Part shown: positions 1-7,736 of the stretch, piece by piece
Layout: the number at the start of each line of letters is the position of its first letter
Position numbering within the stretch: the stretch's first letter is position 1
Assembly (NCBI GenBank): GCA_963668715.1
Contig: OY764960.1
Coordinates: 719,602-783,601 of the forward strand
Direction of reading: 5' to 3'
Source: Bacteroidales bacterium
GTDB lineage: Bacteria; Bacteroidota; Bacteroidia; Bacteroidales; VadinHA17
DNA length: 64,000 nucleotides
Made by a program: the position numbers and the translations under genes
Notes under the pieces: model-generated
What the model saw: the letters and a program-made list of their open reading frames with translations, nothing else
What the model was told of the DNA's origin: nothing
Database searches by the model: none

Positions 1-49
1 TGATTCATTTTTAAGCACTTCGGTTGCTTCTTACCGGTCATAATGCAGT

Positions 50-384
50 GCTAAACGAAGTTTACTCACTTTTGTGAGATCGCTTCGCTAAGTTCGTACT
101 GAGGAGGATCCAGACAAAAGCAAAACCAGATTGCGTTTAGCAACATACTACATGTACTTCATTGTTACTAATTCACGAAATTATTAGATATGGGAGTGAT
201 TATAAAAAATGACTAATGTCGAAAGGAAAAGGTTGAGAAGGAGTTGAGAAAAGTTTAGAATAAGTTTAAATGGTGTTGTAGTTTAACAGTAAAAGCTAAA
301 CAACTTAACACCCTTAACGAATAAACAACTAAACAAATAACCTATTTCACCACGGAGCACACGGAGCACCACGGTGACACACGG
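50..384 (+). repeat. Intergenic repeat element, copy R1 (conserved core plus low-complexity modules)
   Basis: Near-identical to 5655..5988 (about six substitutions and two short indels, counted by eye). Core is shared with 6770..6946. Complementary arms gctaaacg (50..57) and cgtttagc (134..141). 9-bp quasi-tandem cacggagca at 351..384. Confidence 0.8.
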
Positions 385-407
385 GGAAGATAGTGATTTG
401 AATTTTA

Positions 408-1780
408 TCATTCGTATTTCAATGTTTGAACAGGATTTCTATTTGCTGCCATCCAACTTTGCCATGTTACTGTAATAATTGATATAATTAAAACGACAAC
501 ACCCGATAGAATAAATAAATCCCAACTAATGCTGGTTCTGTATGCAAATTCCTGAAACCAATTTCTGACTAAAAAGAACCCAATAGGGCATGATATAACA
601 AATCCAATAATTGAAGCTGAAAGTAATTTAACATTTAACAATTTTAATATTTCGTTTACTTTAGCACCGTTTACCCTTCTAATCCCTATTTCTTTTATTT
701 TATGGGCTATTGAAAACAAAGACCAGCTAAAAAGTCCTAAGCATGCAATTACTATCGCTATAATTGAGAATATTATAATCAGATTTTTTAATTGTTTTTC
801 TTTCTTATACATGTGAGAAAACTTATCAGAGTATCCCTGATATTCAAAAGGAACATTTGGGGCAAAAGTTTTCCATTCCGATCTTAAAAAATTTATGGTT
901 TCCGCTCTATCCGCCATCGGGTTGAAACGGATTATAGCAAACCCGCCATTGCATTGATCGGGGATATATTTAAATGCAAAAGGTTCAATACTATTGTGTA
1001 GTGAAGTATAGTGAAAGTCTTTTACTACTCCAATAACAGGAATGCCCATTATTTTTGACTCGAAAGGGTCATCAGACAGGCCATATCTTTTTACGGCAGA
1101 TTCATTAATAATCCAACCATTTGTAATGGTTGATAAATCTAAACATTCTTTAACTTTAACGCCAGTAGCATTAAAAAAGTGCTTGTCAATATTCCTCCAT
1201 CTAAACGGGACATCTGACATTGTGTTTCCTTTATGCTCAATGGAAACAAAAGCTTTATTGCCGTCATTATTATATCCAAGAAATGAATTTATATAAGTAC
1301 AATCTTCAATATTGGGGTTTTTAAGTATATCTTCCCTGAAAGCTTGCATATTTCCTAATTTATATGATCCTCTTACTTCAATACAGTTAGCTTTATCAAA
1401 ACCTAAATCAGTTGAATTAAGGTATTTTGTCTGTTTAATAACAAATAAAGTAAAAATGATTAGTGAAGAAGAAACAACAAATTGGAAAACAACCAGGCTT
1501 TGCCTATAATATCCGGCACTTTTGCCTTTAGAAAACTTGTTCTTCAAATTATTAATGACATTTTCCCTTGTCATAATTAAAGCTGGAAAAAATCCGCAAA
1601 TTACACCAATAAATGAGGCAATTAAGATTGTAGTAAGTATTACACTGAATTTATTTAGAAGCTTATAATTTAAGCTAAAATCATTTGCTTTATTAAAAAT
1701 TTCAAACAAAAATTCGACTAATATCCTTGATAAAATTAAAGCCGCAAAGCACACTATGACTGACTTTATTATTGATTGAC
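408..1780 (-). pseudogene. ABC transporter permease (FtsX/MacB-type), C-terminal fragment separated from the N-terminal fragment by the IS21 insertion
   Basis: The ORF 408..1829 reads out of the IS end. The native part begins at SQSIIKSV. It has a second FtsX-like block (KEIGIRRVNGA) and C-terminal TM helices. It joins 4455..5496 in frame once the IS and one copy of the target duplication are removed. Confidence 0.85.
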
Positions 1781-1795
1781 TGCATATTCTCGCGC

Positions 1796-1944
1796 AAAAC
1801 GGACACTCATTCTTGCGGAAAGCGGACACGGATTCCTGCGGAAAGCGGACAGCAATTCTTGTTGAAAACGGACACGGATTCCTGCGGAAAGCGGACAGCC
1901 GCCCCTTTTGAAAGCGGACGGTGATTCTTGCTGAAAACGGACAC
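1796..1944 (+). repeat. IS21 left-end subterminal repeats (7 copies of AA[A/G]CGGACA[C/G], 23-bp period)
   Basis: Copies start near 1796, 1818, 1841, 1864, 1887, 1910 and 1933. The same motif occurs in inverted orientation at the right end. Confidence 0.85.
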
Positions 1945-2018
1945 TTTCATACACATCATTCATTTTCCACGGGATATCGGTATCTCTGTTGGCTTTATTA
2001 ACCAACAAGAGAATACAG

Positions 2019-3566
2019 ATGCCAAGAAAAAGGACCAACGTGGAAAAGATAAGAGAGATATTACGACTTAGTCAGGAATTACGATTTAGCATCCGGCAGA
2101 TTGCAGAGGCCACCCAGGTCAGCAAAACCAGTGTTGGGGAGTACCTGGCAGAATATAAGCGTTCCGGGTTAACCTACCAGGATGTTTTGGAAATGAACGA
2201 CATAGAACTTACAGAAGTCTTTGAAAAGCGAAATAAGATAGTCAATCCGCTTTATGAAGAATTATCCAATGAATTCCCTTATTATGAAAAAGAGCTTGCC
2301 CGGGTTGGCGTAACGCTCTATTTGCTTTGGGAGGAATACAAGGAAGGTAACCCTGAAGGGTTTAGTTACTCCAGGTTCTGTCATCATTATCGCATGTGGG
2401 AGAGCAAGCTGAAAGCGGGAATGCATATAGAGCACAAAGCCGGAGATCTGACATATGCAGATTTTACAGGCAAAAAGATGCATTATGTTGATCCGGATAC
2501 AGGAGAGGTCAAACCGGCAGAAATATTTATTACGATACTTGGTGCCAGTCAGTTGATTTATGTGGAAGGAGTAAAAAGTCAGAAGCTTGAAGACTGGATC
2601 TGGGCCAATGAGAATGCCTGGCGTTATTATGGAGGTGTCACCCGGGGGATATGCCCGGATAATTTGAAGTCAGCTGTTCACAAGGCATGTAATTATGAAC
2701 CCTTATTAAATGAGACTTATGATGATCTTGCCCGGCATTATGGTACAGTTGTTCTTCCTACCCGTCCTTTAAAACCAAAGGATAAATCTTTGGTTGAAAA
2801 TGCGGTACGCATTGTCTATCAACGCATTTTTGCTAAGCTAAGAAACCAGACGTTCTTTTCCCTGGGAGAGTTAAATGAAGCTATCCGGGAAGAGCTTGAA
2901 GAGATAAATAACGCTCCGTTCCAGCGCCGGGATATTAGTCGAAGAGAGTTATTTAATGAAATAGAAAAGAATGAATTGCGACCACTACCCAAAGAGCGAT
3001 ATGAGATCCGTCGTTACCAGGTGTCTAAAGTTGAATTTCACCACCATGTTTACCTAAGAGAGGACAAGCATTATTACAGCGTGCCCTATCAATATACCGG
3101 ACAGAAGGTCAAAACCATTTACACGAACAGGAATGTTGAGATATACAAGGATAGTGTTCGTATCGCGCTTCATAAAAGAGACCGCAGGCCTTATGGTTAT
3201 ACAACAGAGAAAGGTCATATGCCTGCAGAACATCAGTTTGTTGATGGTTGGAATACAGATCGTTTTGTAAAATGGGCCAAAAAGATGGGCGGTTCCGTAG
3301 AGATTTTTATAGGACTCCTGTTGGACAGCAAAGAACATCCTCAGCAAGCATTTAAATCTTGCATGGGAGTATTGAACCTAAGTAAAGGGTATAAACCGGA
3401 AGATCTGGAAATAGTATGCAGCAGGGCTGTTGAGTACAACTGTATCTCATTCAAGTTTATCAAGAACTGCCTGAAAAATAACACTCACAAAACAGAACAG
3501 GAAAACCAAATAGAAATAAAACTTCCTTTTCATCATAACATACGAGGAAAAGAGAATTACAAATAA
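2019..3566 (+). CDS. istA: IS21-family transposase IstA
   Basis: N-terminal HTH (IREILRLSQE..IRQIAEAT), a DDE-type integrase core region, and ~515 aa, all typical of IstA. Followed after 21 nt by istB. The ORF track starts at a TTG (1989); the ATG at 2019 is preferred. Confidence 0.9.
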   Translation: MPRKRTNVEKIREILRLSQELRFSIRQIAEATQVSKTSVGEYLAEYKRSGLTYQDVLEMNDIELTEVFEKRNKIVNPLYEELSNEFPYYEKELARVGVTLYLLWEEYKEGNPEGFSYSRFCHHYRMWESKLKAGMHIEHKAGDLTYADFTGKKMHYVDPDTGEVKPAEIFITILGASQLIYVEGVKSQKLEDWIWANENAWRYYGGVTRGICPDNLKSAVHKACNYEPLLNETYDDLARHYGTVVLPTRPLKPKDKSLVENAVRIVYQRIFAKLRNQTFFSLGELNEAIREELEEINNAPFQRRDISRRELFNEIEKNELRPLPKERYEIRRYQVSKVEFHHHVYLREDKHYYSVPYQYTGQKVKTIYTNRNVEIYKDSVRIALHKRDRRPYGYTTEKGHMPAEHQFVDGWNTDRFVKWAKKMGGSVEIFIGLLLDSKEHPQQAFKSCMGVLNLSKGYKPEDLEIVCSRAVEYNCISFKFIKNCLKNNTHKTEQENQIEIKLPFHHNIRGKENYK

Positions 3567-3587
3567 TAAATTTAATAGCAGAAAATT

Positions 3588-4322
3588 ATGAATCAAACAG
3601 CAACAATGCAGAAACTTGAGGAGATGCGACTGAGCGGGTTCTCAAGAGTCTATCGGAAAATGCAGGAATCAGGAATGAGTAAAGATTTTACCATAGATGA
3701 AGTTATTGCTCATCTTGTCCAGGCAGAATGGGATGATCGATATAATCGACGACTGGATCGACTAATAAAAAACGCCAGGTTCCGCTACCAGGCGAGCATG
3801 GAACAAATAGATTACATCGCTAAAAGAAAACTGGATAAAGTACAGATGCTGCGTTTATCGTCCTGTGAATGGATCAAAAGAAAACAAAGCATCATCATAT
3901 CCGGATACACAGGACTGGGTAAAAGCTTTTTGGCTTCTGCTTTGGGTCATCAGGCCTGTCAGCAGGGATATAAAGTATATTACCGTAACTGCTCAAAACT
4001 GTTCGATCAACTAAAAATGGCTAAGGCAGATGGCAGTTATATAAGCGAAATAAACAGGATAGAGAAACTGGACCTGTTGATCCTTGATGACTTCGGGCTT
4101 AAACCATTAGATAACAACCAGAGGCTGTTCTTGCTTGAGTTACTCGAAGACCGGCATGGTAAAAGGTCAACGATAATTACATCACAGCTTCCGGTTAAAA
4201 GCTGGTATGATGTTATTGGAGAACCTACGATCGCTGACGCGATCCTTGATAGATTAGTGCATAGTTCTCATAGAATAGAGCTCGATGGAGACTCGTTAAG
4301 AGAGAAATATAAAAATGATTAA
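3588..4322 (+). CDS. istB: IS21-family helper ATPase IstB
   Basis: Walker A GYTGLGKSF, Walker B LLILDDFG, 244 aa, immediately downstream of istA. Confidence 0.92.
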   Translation: MNQTATMQKLEEMRLSGFSRVYRKMQESGMSKDFTIDEVIAHLVQAEWDDRYNRRLDRLIKNARFRYQASMEQIDYIAKRKLDKVQMLRLSSCEWIKRKQSIIISGYTGLGKSFLASALGHQACQQGYKVYYRNCSKLFDQLKMAKADGSYISEINRIEKLDLLILDDFGLKPLDNNQRLFLLELLEDRHGKRSTIITSQLPVKSWYDVIGEPTIADAILDRLVHSSHRIELDGDSLREKYKND

Positions 4323-4360
4323 TTTTAGAAAATAATAAACGAAAATGAACGATGTGAAAA

Positions 4361-4441
4361 GTGTCCGTTTTCGTCGGGATCAGGTGTCCGTTTTGAACGG
4401 GAACAACTGTCCGCTTTCAGCGGGATTTAGTGTCCGAAATC
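4361..4441 (-). repeat. IS21 right-end subterminal repeats (4 copies, 23-bp period)
   Basis: gtgtccgttttc, gtgtccgttttg, ctgtccgctttc and gtgtccgaaatc at 4361, 4384, 4407 and 4430. These are reverse complements of the left-end motif. Confidence 0.85.
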
Positions 4442-4454
4442 GCAGGAATATGCA

Positions 4455-5496
4455 ATTGACTAACTAAAGAAAAGTCACCTGCACCCATTACTTTTTTAAC
4501 TCCTGTATCTTTTGAGCTTTCAAAGTTCCTGGCAATATCTATATTAATAAAGTTGATTATGGCGAGGATAAGTATTCCAAGTCCAACAAAAAAAAGCGTA
4601 AGGACATAGTTCCTGTTTCCATGGACAATATGATCATAATCAATTGGAGTACTAAAATGTAATTTAGAAAGAGGGACCAAATCAACTTTAACCTGGGATA
4701 GCATTCCTTCGGCCTCTTTATTCCCTCCCATTATATTAAATATGGAATGCCTGATTTTTTTAATGACTTCGTTTTTATCAGTATTTTTTCCTAATAAAAA
4801 ATAGCTGTCGCAACTACAGTTTTCATCATTCTCTAAATCCACTTTAGTAAGTTCTTTACATAAACTAAAAGGTAACAGTCCGTCAAATTTTATTGACGAG
4901 TTATCAGGCACATCAGCAAGAACAGCCCGTACAGTTAAGAAAATCGTATCGTTAACAATTAATTGCTTTCCATAAGCAGACGCTTCCCCGAATAATTTCG
5001 TAGAGACACTTTTAGTTATTGCTATAGAATTACGCTCGGTAAGGGTAAGGTTTAAATCGCCATCCAATGTTTTAAACGAAAAAATATCTGCAAAATCTTT
5101 ATTGGCATAAAACAAATTTAAATTGTCAATTTCTTTATCTCCGTATCTAATTTTTAAATTGTCAGAAAAGTACATGCCATGAGTATTGATTAAAGCAATT
5201 TTTAAAATTTCAGGGATGTCCTCTTTAAATTTTTGACTAACGGCGGAATTTATTTCACTTGTTTTTCCGATTGGGGAGTCTATAAATAGCCTGAATATTT
5301 GCGATCTATTATTGTGAAAAGAGTCGTGCGAAATTTCGTTGTATACATAAAGCCAGATTAATAACACAGACGCAAAGGCTACAGAAAGGCCCAGTATATT
5401 AATCAATGTAAATTTTTCCGGTTTAAAAACCCTGTTTAATAAAACTTTAATATGAAATGCTATCACAATTTTATTTTTTGATAACGATTTAATCAA
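4455..5496 (-). pseudogene. ABC transporter permease (FtsX/MacB-type), N-terminal fragment
   Basis: N-terminal TM helix, a large periplasmic MacB-like domain, then the start of an FtsX block (GVKKVMGAGDFSLVSQ) cut by the IS. Restored length is 1042+1373-6 = 2409 nt, which is in frame (802 codons plus stop). Confidence 0.85.
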
Positions 5497-5654
5497 TTAA
5501 TGCACCAAAATCGTATCCCTCTAATTTTTAATCAAATACAAAATCAGGCATTAGTCAATTTGTTATAAATAATTACAGTATCTGTAAAGAATCGTAACAA
5601 TTAATAAGGGTATTCATTTAGAAATGCTATTGCCTGTCTTGCTCACAACGCTGC

Positions 5655-5988
5655 GCTAAACAGAGTTTACTCACTTTCGTTCGTGAGATCGCTTCACTAA
5701 GTTTGTACTGAGGAGGATCCAGACAAAAGCAAAACCAGATTGCGTTTAGCAACATACTACATGTACTTCATTGTTACTAATTCACGAAATTATTAGATAT
5801 GGGAGTGATTATAAAAAATGACTAATGTCGAAAGGAAAAGGTTGAGAAGGAGTTGAGAAAAGAATGAGTTTAAATGGTGTTGTAGTTTAACAGGAAAAGC
5901 TAAACAACTTAACACCCTTAACGAATAAACAACTAAACAAATAACCTATTTCACCACGGAACACACGGAGCACCACGGTGACACACGG
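5655..5988 (+). repeat. Intergenic repeat element, copy R2
   Basis: Direct repeat of 50..384 on the other side of the disrupted permease gene. A long identical stretch runs from aggaggatccagac to gttgagaaaag. Confidence 0.85.
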
Positions 5989-6169
5989 TGAAAATAAAGT
6001 GAACAGTTTAACATAAACGCTGACACGCTGAAATATTTTCGCTATATCCTCTTCGGCTCTGCGCTTTGCAAGACCAGAAACTTAAAACCCGGAACGTGAA
6101 ATCAGGAAGCTCTGTATTGCATGCAGTCGTAATGCTTAGTTATCAGGCATAGTTTATTTACTTTTCAAA

Positions 6170-6628
6170 TTAGTTTTTTAAAAAGATGTAGCCATTTAAT
6201 GAGGTGGCGATTAATAACCAAATCAAGTAAGGGACTATTAAAAAGGATTTATGTTTTAGTTCGGGCCAGTAAAAGAATAACATAAATCCTATAAGTACAG
6301 TCAGCATGCTAATCAGCAGGAGGCCTCCTGAAATATTTTTATAATAAAAAAAGGTTGGACTCCATCCTATATTTAGGATTAATTGAATGATATACAGACC
6401 AATAAGAAGATTCTTATTCTCAATAACAGGCCATGAATAAGCCATATATAAGCTAAAACAGATCATAATTGTAGTCCATGCTGTTCCAAATACCCAACCA
6501 GGAGGAGTCCATGGGGCTTTATTCAATTCAATATACCAATCAGAGGGGACTCCTTTGCCAGTGAATAATCCTCCTATTGCAAGTGCCCCAAAATTGAGTG
6601 CTAAGAATAAAACAAGTCTAAAAACCAT
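6170..6628 (-). CDS. tspO: TspO/MBR family tryptophan-rich sensory protein
   Basis: 152 aa, five hydrophobic helices, Trp-rich motifs (APWTPPGWVFGTAWTTIM, GWSPTFF) typical of TspO. Confidence 0.85.
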   Translation of the reverse strand: MVFRLVLFLALNFGALAIGGLFTGKGVPSDWYIELNKAPWTPPGWVFGTAWTTIMICFSLYMAYSWPVIENKNLLIGLYIIQLILNIGWSPTFFYYKNISGGLLLISMLTVLIGFMLFFYWPELKHKSFLIVPYLIWLLIATSLNGYIFLKN

Positions 6629-6678
6629 AGGGTCTCCTTTCAGTTTAATTTCTTATTTACAATGACTTATAATTTATT

Positions 6679-6686
6679 CAAATTTA
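6679..6686 (-). promoter_or_regulatory. Candidate Bacteroidota -7 promoter element (TAAATTTG = TAnnTTTG) upstream of tspO
   Basis: Exact match to TAnnTTTG on the minus strand, 50 nt upstream of the tspO ATG. No clear -33 TTTG was seen. Confidence 0.3.
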
Positions 6687-6739
6687 TCCATTTTCAACAC
6701 TTTTTCCCAATCAGTTTTTATGTTTACAAAAAATTAATC

Positions 6740-7017
6740 GTGTTCGTGAGATGTAGAAATTATGTCTAACGCTTCGCTAAGTTCGCACCGAGGGCGAAAG
6801 CTGCCGGACTTGACCGGGCAGACTGTAAAGCCCGCAAGGGTGGGACCAAGTTGCGTTTAGCAGTATGTTCTATATGTTTCATTGTTACTAATTTAAGAAA
6901 TTATCAGATATGGGAGGGATTATAAAAAATGACTAACGGCGAAAGGCAAAGGGCTAAAGAAGAAGGTTGAGAAAGTTGAGAATGGGTTTAAATGGGTTAT
7001 TTAGGTTATTCATCGTT
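6740..7017 (+). repeat. Intergenic repeat element, divergent copy R3 (core with inserted GNRA-capped hairpins)
   Basis: It shares cgcttcgctaagttcg, ttgcgtttagca, and cattgttactaat..agatatggga..gattataaaaaatgactaa..cgaaagg with R1/R2. The segment between these differs and contains gcgaaagc, ctgccgg..ccgggcag and cccgcaaggg hairpins. Confidence 0.7.
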
Positions 7018-7265
7018 CCATTAATCCATTATTCCATTAATCCATTATTCCATTATTCCATTATTCCATTATTCCATTATTCCATTATTCCATTATTCCA
7101 TTATTCCATTATTCCATTATTCCATTATTCCATTATTCCATTATTCCATTATTCCATTATTCCATTATTCCATTATTCCATTATTCCATTATTCCATTAT
7201 TCCATTATTCCATTATTCCATTATTCCATTATTCCATTATTCCATTATTCCATTATTCCATTATT
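7018..7265 (+). repeat. Tandem 8-bp repeat (ccattatt) x31
   Basis: 28 perfect units at 7042..7265, preceded by ccattaat/ccattatt/ccattaat variants. It sits where R1/R2 carry other low-complexity modules. Confidence 0.97.
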
Positions 7266-7266
7266 C

Positions 7267-7300
7267 AAAAAAAGGCGTGAACCTCACGATCCACGCCTTT
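7267..7300 (-). terminator. Rho-independent terminator of the cytochrome operon
   Basis: On the minus strand: stem ggcgtg/cacgcc (7274..7279 pairs with 7292..7297) followed by a run of 7 T. It begins 20 nt after the stop of the 7320..7736 gene. Confidence 0.7.
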
Positions 7301-7319
7301 CATTCAATAATCAGTCACC

Positions 7320-7736
7320 TTATTTTTTGAATGTTCGCATATAGTTTACCATGTGCCATATGTCGGGGTCAGGTATCTTACCTTCGTAAGCTGGCATTTC
7401 GTCGCGACCAAACTTGGTTTTATAGAAATGTTCTCCGTCTGTCTGATCCTGATAGCCCGGTCCGGAAAAATCTCCGGCAAATGTCTTGAGCGCCCTGGCT
7501 TTTACACCGTCACCCAGCCCTGCTTTTCCATGGCATGATGCACAATTACGTTTGTAAAGCCCTTCTCCTTTCTGAATGCTTTCAGCATTAGCTTCAACAG
7601 GGTTTTCCATACTTTTATACTCAGCAGGCACTTCCCATGGTTCGGGCATCTTCTGCCTCTGAGGAGTCATAGAAACAAGTCCGAAGCCAAGTCCTGTCAG
7701 TAACAGAAAAAATGTAAAAAATTTCAGTGTTTTCAT
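7320..7736 (-). CDS. Class I c-type cytochrome (monoheme), periplasmic
   Basis: Signal peptide, a single CASCH heme motif, a downstream Met-containing segment (DEMPAY), 138 aa. Confidence 0.8.
   Translation of the reverse strand: MKTLKFFTFFLLLTGLGFGLVSMTPQRQKMPEPWEVPAEYKSMENPVEANAESIQKGEGLYKRNCASCHGKAGLGDGVKARALKTFAGDFSGPGYQDQTDGEHFYKTKFGRDEMPAYEGKIPDPDIWHMVNYMRTFKK

Follow-up and report, generated by a model that had tools for sequence, protein, structure and literature searches.

The locus and its three repeat copies

A stretch of 64,000 nucleotides from the genome of a Bacteroidales bacterium (GenBank assembly GCA_963668715.1, contig OY764960.1, positions 719,602 to 783,601; hereafter the window) contains three copies of an intergenic repeat, namely R1 (36-396), R2 (5640-5992) and R3 (6740-7015, extended by a 31-unit 8-mer array), which are considered here as candidate remains of attC-type sites, the recombination sites of integron gene cassettes. 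The flanking genes are all located on the minus strand and encode a MacB/FtsX-type permease, the accessory protein TspO, and a cytochrome c, the last gene of a cytochrome operon. As described in an earlier note on this DNA, made from the sequence alone, R1 and R2 bracket a permease gene disrupted by an insertion sequence (IS), which was found to belong to the IS21 family. The coordinates of all features are listed in Table 1, and genome coordinates outside the window carry the prefix C1.

Table 1. Features of the repeat-bearing part of the window (TRF, Tandem Repeats Finder; dots denote no assigned strand)
Feature	Position	Strand	Basis or remark
R1, A-type downstream half-site	36-141	-	Alignment, module A genome copies, motif coordinates
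R1, module C: taatt hairpin and gatatggga..gattataaaaaatgactaa..cgaaagg	142-232	-	Genome-specific repeat, 4 full copies
R1, filler modules D (purine-rich on +), E (CTAAACAA x5.5) and F (CACGGAGCA x3.6)	226-396	.	TRF
MacB/FtsX-type permease gene, C-terminal part	408-1829	-	Pfam FtsX, E=3.4e-17
IS21-family insertion (23-nt terminal repeats)	1786-4440	+	Pfam IstB_IS21 3e-67, Mu-transpos_C_2; TRF terminal arrays
istA	1989-3566		IS21 gene
istB	3588-4322		IS21 gene
Split permease, N-terminal part (MacB periplasmic core domain)	4417-5496	-	Pfam MacB_PCD, E=8.5e-12
R2, A-type downstream half-site	5640-5750	-	Gene-strand end cGTTTAGCGCAGC-G|TTGTGAGC; aacgctgcgctaaac at 5647-5661
R2, module C, then filler D, E, F	5751-5992	.	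Alignment and TRF
Second-class left box ATAAC-T-AAGCATT	6131-6143	-	Directly after TspO stop codon
TspO/MBR gene, accessory, between R3 and R2	6170-6628	-	Pfam TspO_MBR, E=8e-32
R3, B-type downstream half-site	6764-6861	-	29 module B genome copies; aligned with 35 other copies
R3, module C, then purine-rich module D	6862-7015	.	Alignment
(TTCCATTA) x31.4 array	7016-7266	.	TRF score 488, 98% matches
Terminator-like hairpin and T-run of cytochrome c gene; right edge of 14-kb island	7267-7300	-	Read from sequence
Module A	36-110		22 genome copies
Module B (R3 hairpin domain)	6766-6870		29 genome copies
Module C (taatt hairpin and gatatggga...cgaaagg)	125-226		4 full genome copies
Modules D, E, F (low-complexity)	221-396		46, 32 and 24 loci genome-wide

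All motifs which the earlier note had listed for the three copies were located at the positions claimed, including cgtttagc (134, 5743, and 6854), the taatt..aatta hairpin (169-183, 5778-5792, and 6889-6903), gatatggga (187, 5796, and 6907), and, in R3, gcgaaagc, cccgcaaggg, and ctgccgg..ccgggcag (within 6794-6840). In addition, cgcttcgctaagttcg occurs at 81-96 and 6770-6785, with cgcttcactaagtttg as its counterpart at 5690-5705. The complementary arms proposed for the core stood only in part: cgtttagc is present in all three copies, but its partner gctaaacg is exact in R1 alone (50-57), reading gctaaaca in R2 and gtctaacg in R3. R1 and R2 share 93.6% identity over about 360 nt, and the global alignment of 36-396 with 5640-5992 gave 13 substitutions and 5 gaps instead of the "about six substitutions and two indels" counted before. 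These differences concentrate near the downstream gene, positions 97-330 being almost identical. R3 shares about 150 nt (6846-6996) with the other copies at 82% identity, and carries in addition a different, hairpin-rich segment; its 31-unit array was reproduced by TRF, along with the weaker 8- and 10-nt arrays.

Read on the gene strand, the R1 half-site runs gctaaacgcaatctgg...cgaacttagcgaagcg-hairpin-cGTTTAGCACTGC-A|TT, with the bar marking the presumed crossover point (window 43/44), and the R3 half-site runs gctaaacgcaacttgg-[CCCttgcGGG]-[CTGcCCGGtcaagtCCGGCAG]-...cttagcgaagc-G|TTAGAC. The ATAAC-T-AAGCATT box behind TspO was also found after two further genes (C1:717184-718344 and C1:3160.9 kb). 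Moreover, the IS21 element in the permease bears 23-nt repeat arrays at both ends (1786-1944, 6.9 copies; 4359-4436, 3.4 copies), and the 8-mer array of R3 generates a spurious open reading frame (ORF) of 125 aa with PLFHYSII repeats (6967-7344, plus strand) that gene callers may annotate.

Modules, orientation, and fold of the repeat family

BLAST and nhmmer searches against the whole 4.27-Mb genome, by which the modules were separated, revealed that the copies are each pieced together from distinct repeat families. The genome-wide search for the core that had been called for yielded further copies of modules A, B, and C alike, a recurrence beyond chance. Full copies of module C lie at window 142-232, 5751-5841, and 6862-6958 and at C1:3160602, and no match to it was detected in the 60 relatives searched, indicating that module C is not a conserved RNA family. 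For modules D, E, and F, nearly all loci are intergenic without any orientation preference relative to genes, spacers between convergent and between divergent genes included. In two relatives (L065, 1325-1655; L068, 1140-1636), the spacer after the cytochrome c gene carries other short-unit arrays (cttccagt, gagtttga, and cttgtat units), and repeat filler at this spacer is thus a trait of the genus. Because they are unoriented and intergenic, and since relatives hold other short-unit arrays at the same spacer, modules D, E, and F are regarded as tandem-repeat filler; accordingly, the 3' blocks previously termed hypervariable turned out to be common short tandem repeats with 24-46 loci each.

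Two candidate functions within these modules were rejected on inspection. A short plus-strand ORF in module C (ATG ACT AAT GTC...) has 12-13 codons, with inter-copy substitutions free of synonymous bias, and no consistent Bacteroidetes -33/-7 promoter pattern was seen among the copies in module C or at the right end. Module A copies are distinguished from the B-type by a 28-nt hairpin-bearing insert (agcgaagcgatctcacgaaagtgagta) between 5-nt direct repeats AACTT (e.g., window 57-96, reverse complement, and C1:1727184), as though the B element had received a tiny insertion.

One explanation of these similarities, judged very improbable, is that segmental duplication of a spacer, recent for R1 and R2 and older for R3, produced the copies, with no function attached. 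The near-identity of R1 and R2 and the existence of just four copies of module C would fit such a duplication, but the A and B parts have about 50 relatives in all, a family that is conserved across genera. Furthermore, the fourth module C locus, 2.4 Mb away within a toxin-antitoxin-rich cassette array, repeats the module order F-D-C-B.

All copies of modules A and B (51/51) are located between same-strand genes and run antisense to the strand read in the earlier note, and their ends typically lie 20-80 nt ahead of the next start codon. The full element starts a few bases past the stop codon of one gene and ends with ...CGTTTAGCGCTGC-(A/G)|TT. In the gene-strand reading, a complete B-type element measures 175-200 nt and has the layout AATGCAGCGCTAAAC-CAAATTGC...CTAAACGCAATTTGG-[CCGCCCttgcGGGC]-[CTGCtCGAGcaagCTCGgCAG]-...GGAACTTC-GTTTAGCGCTGCATT. 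The full member of this family of about 50 copies in the genome is a branched imperfect palindrome with 13-15 bp of terminal complementarity and a fold z score of -4.8, as DNA or as RNA. Covariation was analyzed on 36 copies from this genome and other metagenome-assembled genomes (MAGs). Helix 3, the second hairpin, showed compensatory, both-side changes at 5 of its 9 pairs, and overall 91.7% of the alignment cells pair, compared with 82.2% in shuffles (0/500 reached the observed value) and 30-40% with slid partners. The hairpin domain is therefore variable and structured, as had been proposed, which suits a folded DNA site or an RNA alike.

The earlier note had offered, as one option, a structured non-coding RNA family with a hypervariable 3' region, which is not supported by these results: all 51 copies lie opposite to the strand assumed relative to the flanking genes, and its most conserved block, gatatggga...cgaaagg, occurs only in this genome and in none of the 60 relatives. 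Likewise, the Rfam check gave no relevant match, as neither the whole window at the gathering score (Rfam 15, 0 matches) nor window 1-7400 at E<=10 (only two chance-level matches, outside the repeats) connected the repeats to a known family. A revised version, in which the core is a structured cis-acting RNA of the 5' leader or intercistronic region (stabilizer, processing site, or regulator), is quite improbable. It agrees with the invariably sense orientation and the constant position shortly before the next start codon, with the compensatory changes in one hairpin, and with a wobble asymmetry favoring the transcribed strand. Nevertheless, the genes downstream are functionally unrelated, module C is limited to one genome, and the 3' edge of the element coincides with cassette-specific ends, which a leader RNA does not explain, besides the missing Rfam match.

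Split sites, cassette arrays, and the Xer-like recombinase

The sites of this genome share a constant right end (...GTTTAGCGCTGC-(A/G)|TT), and in about 17 cassettes the 7-10 nt after TT recur as a reverse complement ending with AAC right after the cassette stop codon, next to a conserved L'' box (..GCGGTCATAAAACATTTGGG..). The pairs ATTATAAAGC/GCTTTATAAC and ATTGGCAACC/GGTTGCCAAC are examples. This recurrence of the letters after TT as a reverse complement past the next gene is the split-site rule of integron cassettes. The genes carried by the cassettes of this genome include TacT/TacA, HEPN/MNT, ParE, and DUF6932/HTH. In a relative (G030), more than 20 small same-strand genes (YoeB/YefM, PIN, MazF, ParE, and HEPN/MNT) line up behind a tyrosine recombinase, and each cassette gene is followed by GCTAAC-AA-GCGGTATAGG...CCCATACCGC-CGACC-GTTAGC; here, 9 of 11 cognate pairs match over at least 8 nt, compared with non-cognate pairs, of which 5% reach 6 nt. 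The rule was also obeyed by all five cassettes of the isolate Tangfeifania diversioriginum, the first one against the attI-like sequence GTTAGCGCC, and a similar array with defence genes was detected in Saccharicrinis carchari. The locus in T. diversioriginum (FQZE01000003.1, 10001-18900), with recombinase, attI-like site, and five cassettes, among them NOV_C, esterase, DUF3223, and DnaJ-domain genes, would be usable as a laboratory model.

Taken from the sequence, the attC layout R''(..AAC)-L''...L'-spacer-R'(GTT..) is present in the arrays of this genome, G030, and Tangfeifania. When the R''-L'' box was searched for with a loose regular expression, a flood of false hits resulted; with a short nhmmer profile the E-values were only weak, yet the hits were grouped in the arrays. 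The crossover had initially been placed at G|TTTAGCG, with CTAAAC/GTTTAG as R''/R', but this was dropped because cassette-specific sequence begins only after GC(R)TT.

A recent 718-nt cassette duplicate (C1:1720 kb and 1727 kb) has its edges within the repeat and at an IS end and hence gave no information on the crossover point. Ends of one IS (terminal ...CTGTGCAAAAAC) adjoin cassette-site junctions at C1:1721.1 kb, C1:2399387, and C1:3976193; the IS transposase is encoded at C1:1731464-1733026, and one IS end lies 5 nt before G|TTCAGG. The location of its ends at three junctions suggests that this IS may target cassette sites, like the IS1111-attC elements of classical integrons.

In addition to gene cassettes, at least 10 copies of an ORF-less unit of 264-350 nt were identified in the genome. 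Each unit opens with G|TTCAGGCACATT, preceded in every case by the L'-spacer from the site of another gene cassette; the complementary AATGTGCCTGAAY stands ahead of GCAGCGCTAAAC..., and the constant right end at R|TT closes the unit. By its layout the unit matches an empty cassette, whose own site would be the B element. The distribution of the B element is patchy (11 of 61 genomes, i.e., this one and 60 relatives), with up to 85% identity in another genus, and about 12 MAGs of digester and sediment origin contain its 27-nt core exactly. At C1:4212400-4212660, there is an attI-like remnant (..ACATATACAC-AGAT-ATT) without recombinase gene; behind it come an ORF-less cassette of reduced size and, next, a 269-aa gene.

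Considering this spread, the repeats could alternatively be selfish intergenic elements of the repetitive extragenic palindrome/bacterial interspersed mosaic element (REP/BIME) or miniature inverted-repeat transposable element (MITE) kind, disseminated by their own transposition or by copy-and-slip and not by cassette recombination, which appears unlikely. Such an origin would agree with the mosaic architecture with modules swapped among copies, the terminal inverted repeats of the full element, the 85-100% identity across genera and in the MAGs mentioned above, suggesting recent spread, and the Y1 transposases (resembling REP-associated tyrosine transposases, RAYT) encoded in the genome, as well as with the window copies, where the split-site rule is missing. 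However, the orientation is strict throughout, and the edges coincide exactly with G|TT and R|TT, beside cassette-specific complementary ends without target-site duplication. Moreover, the flanks of the two Y1_Tnp genes bear neither A nor B motifs, the RAYT-like gene being flanked by a palindrome family of another kind (GTCCCTAACGGGAC); complementary arms occur in about half of the full copies; and in two genomes the element stands directly behind the Xer-like recombinase described below. The GTCCCTAACGGGAC palindrome belongs to a separate REP-like family, found in tandem units of about 139 nt that flank a Y1 (RAYT/IS200-like) gene at C1:2079000-2080600.

A 383-aa tyrosine recombinase heads the array at C1:1697-1736 kb in the same orientation, and neither a canonical IntI nor any other integrase candidate was found in this genome. 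Against TIGR02249, this recombinase reached at best 184 bits (cut-off 265), in two stretches skipping model positions 178-239, and it scored under the cut-offs of the integron-integrase and XerA models alike. Its alignment with XerA and XerD is collinear, and about 100 additional aa form an N-terminal region of its own. In comparison with VchIntIA (2a3v), 29 query residues span 71 chain residues, with about 40 residues of the I2 region missing. In six genomes, ATACAC-type repeats followed by N4-5 and GTTRRRY were found 100-230 nt past the recombinase stop codon, and in G019 and G034 the B element starts no more than 250 nt after this stop codon. The recombinase family has more than 7,400 members, named XerD, site-specific integrase, or occasionally "tyrosine recombinase/integron integrase" in databases. 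It is presumed that the Xer-like recombinase acts on the sites described here. The additional (I2) domain of IntI has been treated as defining and necessary (PMC4889954; 10.1101/2022.02.06.479319), integrons have been reported to be very rare in Bacteroidetes (10.1101/2022.02.28.482270), and the literature search found no paper on this cassette/recombinase system.

Probable decayed cassette boundaries and comparison with known systems

In relatives, a hairpin and then a convergent gene come after the cytochrome c gene. In five congeneric genomes, its direct downstream neighbor is the orthologue of the gene at C1:711682-712839. Because these two genes are directly adjacent in the five congeners, the 14 kb between them in this genome represents an insertion. 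This island (C1:712,840-726,920, including window 1-7320), which is missing in the same five genomes, harbors nine same-strand accessory genes together with R1, R2, and R3, and TspO is absent from all 15 other genomes of the genus. The window copies bound TspO, the IS21-broken MacB-type permease, and a lipoprotein gene. They retain the L'-R' half alone (GTTTAGCACTGC-ATT, GTTTAGCGCAGC-GTT, and CTTAGCGAAGC-GTT), so that the window holds three half-sites, and the recombinase gene is absent from it. Since only half-sites are left, no complementary R'' follows downstream, and the fourth module C locus lies inside a cassette array, the window copies are best read as decayed cassette boundaries that would now be inactive and would have originated by such recombination.

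Taken together, these features of the DNA make it probable that the copies are worn attC-type downstream half-sites of an integron-like gene-capture system, padded with tandem repeats. The second option of the earlier note, a non-autonomous mobile or recombinogenic element, would thus hold in the sense of a downstream half of an attC-type cassette site, not as originally framed. In the proposed mechanism, cutting at R|TT is probably done by the Xer-like recombinase, devoid of the I2 insertion of IntI, so that cassettes would be inserted or excised in the integron fashion. As the site has to fold, compensatory substitutions would preserve the hairpins. The window copies would represent decayed boundary marks of three accessory genes in a strain-specific island, in which the upstream half of the sites may have been replaced by a genome-specific module of 100 nt and by the spacer tandem-repeat filler of the lineage.

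Several observations weigh against the reading as worn cassette sites. The recombinase lacks the I2 domain, which is held essential for attC recombination, and the closest member of its family lies about 1 Mb from the window. In addition, no R'' complement was found after TspO, the permease, or the 346-aa gene, so the window cassettes fail the split-site rule, and the permease would make a large cassette (about 2.5 kb). Furthermore, wobble pairs lean towards a fold of the gene-sense strand, though not decisively (37 G.T vs 9 A.C, counted over non-independent cells and with one pair affected by a bulge). As classical attC sites fold on the bottom strand, this bias also suits an RNA role.

More broadly, it is possible, although slightly on the doubtful side, that environmental Bacteroidales (Rikenellaceae-like MAGs and Marinilabiliales isolates, Tangfeifania and Saccharicrinis among them) run a second class of integron with an Xer-like integrase that has a new N-terminal domain and no I2 helix, that its ORF-less B-element cassette has multiplied and moved between genera, and that the window mosaics reflect the decay of sites away from the platform. 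If so, the ORF-less cassette in these second-class arrays may be selfish or regulatory. Split-site arrays behind a recombinase without the IntI additional domain would widen the definition of the integron, and such arrays are probably missed by standard finders. With the clean five-cassette example in the cultured T. diversioriginum, the question is testable at the bench. For this genome, the modular repeat family gains a concrete mechanism, as part of the mosaic spacers would be tied to cassette recombination; the window copies themselves, as relics, are of limited interest.

Compared with known systems, the arrays resemble sedentary chromosomal integrons and attC-site clusters that have no integron-integrase (CALINs), such as the Vibrio superintegron with its Vibrio cholerae repeats (VCR; PMC4889954), in that small accessory and toxin-antitoxin genes are arranged in the same direction, each followed by an imperfect-palindromic split site with ...AAC and GTT... 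ends, that the sites are near-identical within a genome, and that a recombinase and an attI-like GTTRRRY head the arrays. The differences are that the recombinase carries about 100 extra aa as an N-terminal region and is short of about 40 aa of the I2 domain, that the sites are larger (175-450 nt) and branched, and that the window copies consist of the L'-R' half only, inside tandem-repeat filler. An I2-bearing integrase is thus absent, and the attC layout and the split-site rule are found in the arrays but not in the three window cassettes. The ORF-less units are similar to known ORF-less integron cassettes in their start, complementary segment, and end, but unlike these they reach at least 10 copies per genome, are interleaved with gene cassettes, and are 85-100% conserved across genera. 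Like the REP/BIME mosaics and the REP doublets with RAYT (REPIN-RAYT) of Proteobacteria, the repeats are intergenic, palindromic, modular, and present in many copies, whereas modules A and B are strictly oriented, have cassette-specific ends, and are without a cognate RAYT gene. Finally, modules D, E, and F and the 8-mer array are comparable to short tandemly repeated repetitive (STRR) sequences and long simple sequence repeats of bacterial spacers, being spacer-confined tandem arrays of 8-10-nt units; unlike those, they are joined here to the remains of recombination sites, which gives the whole the look of a single element.

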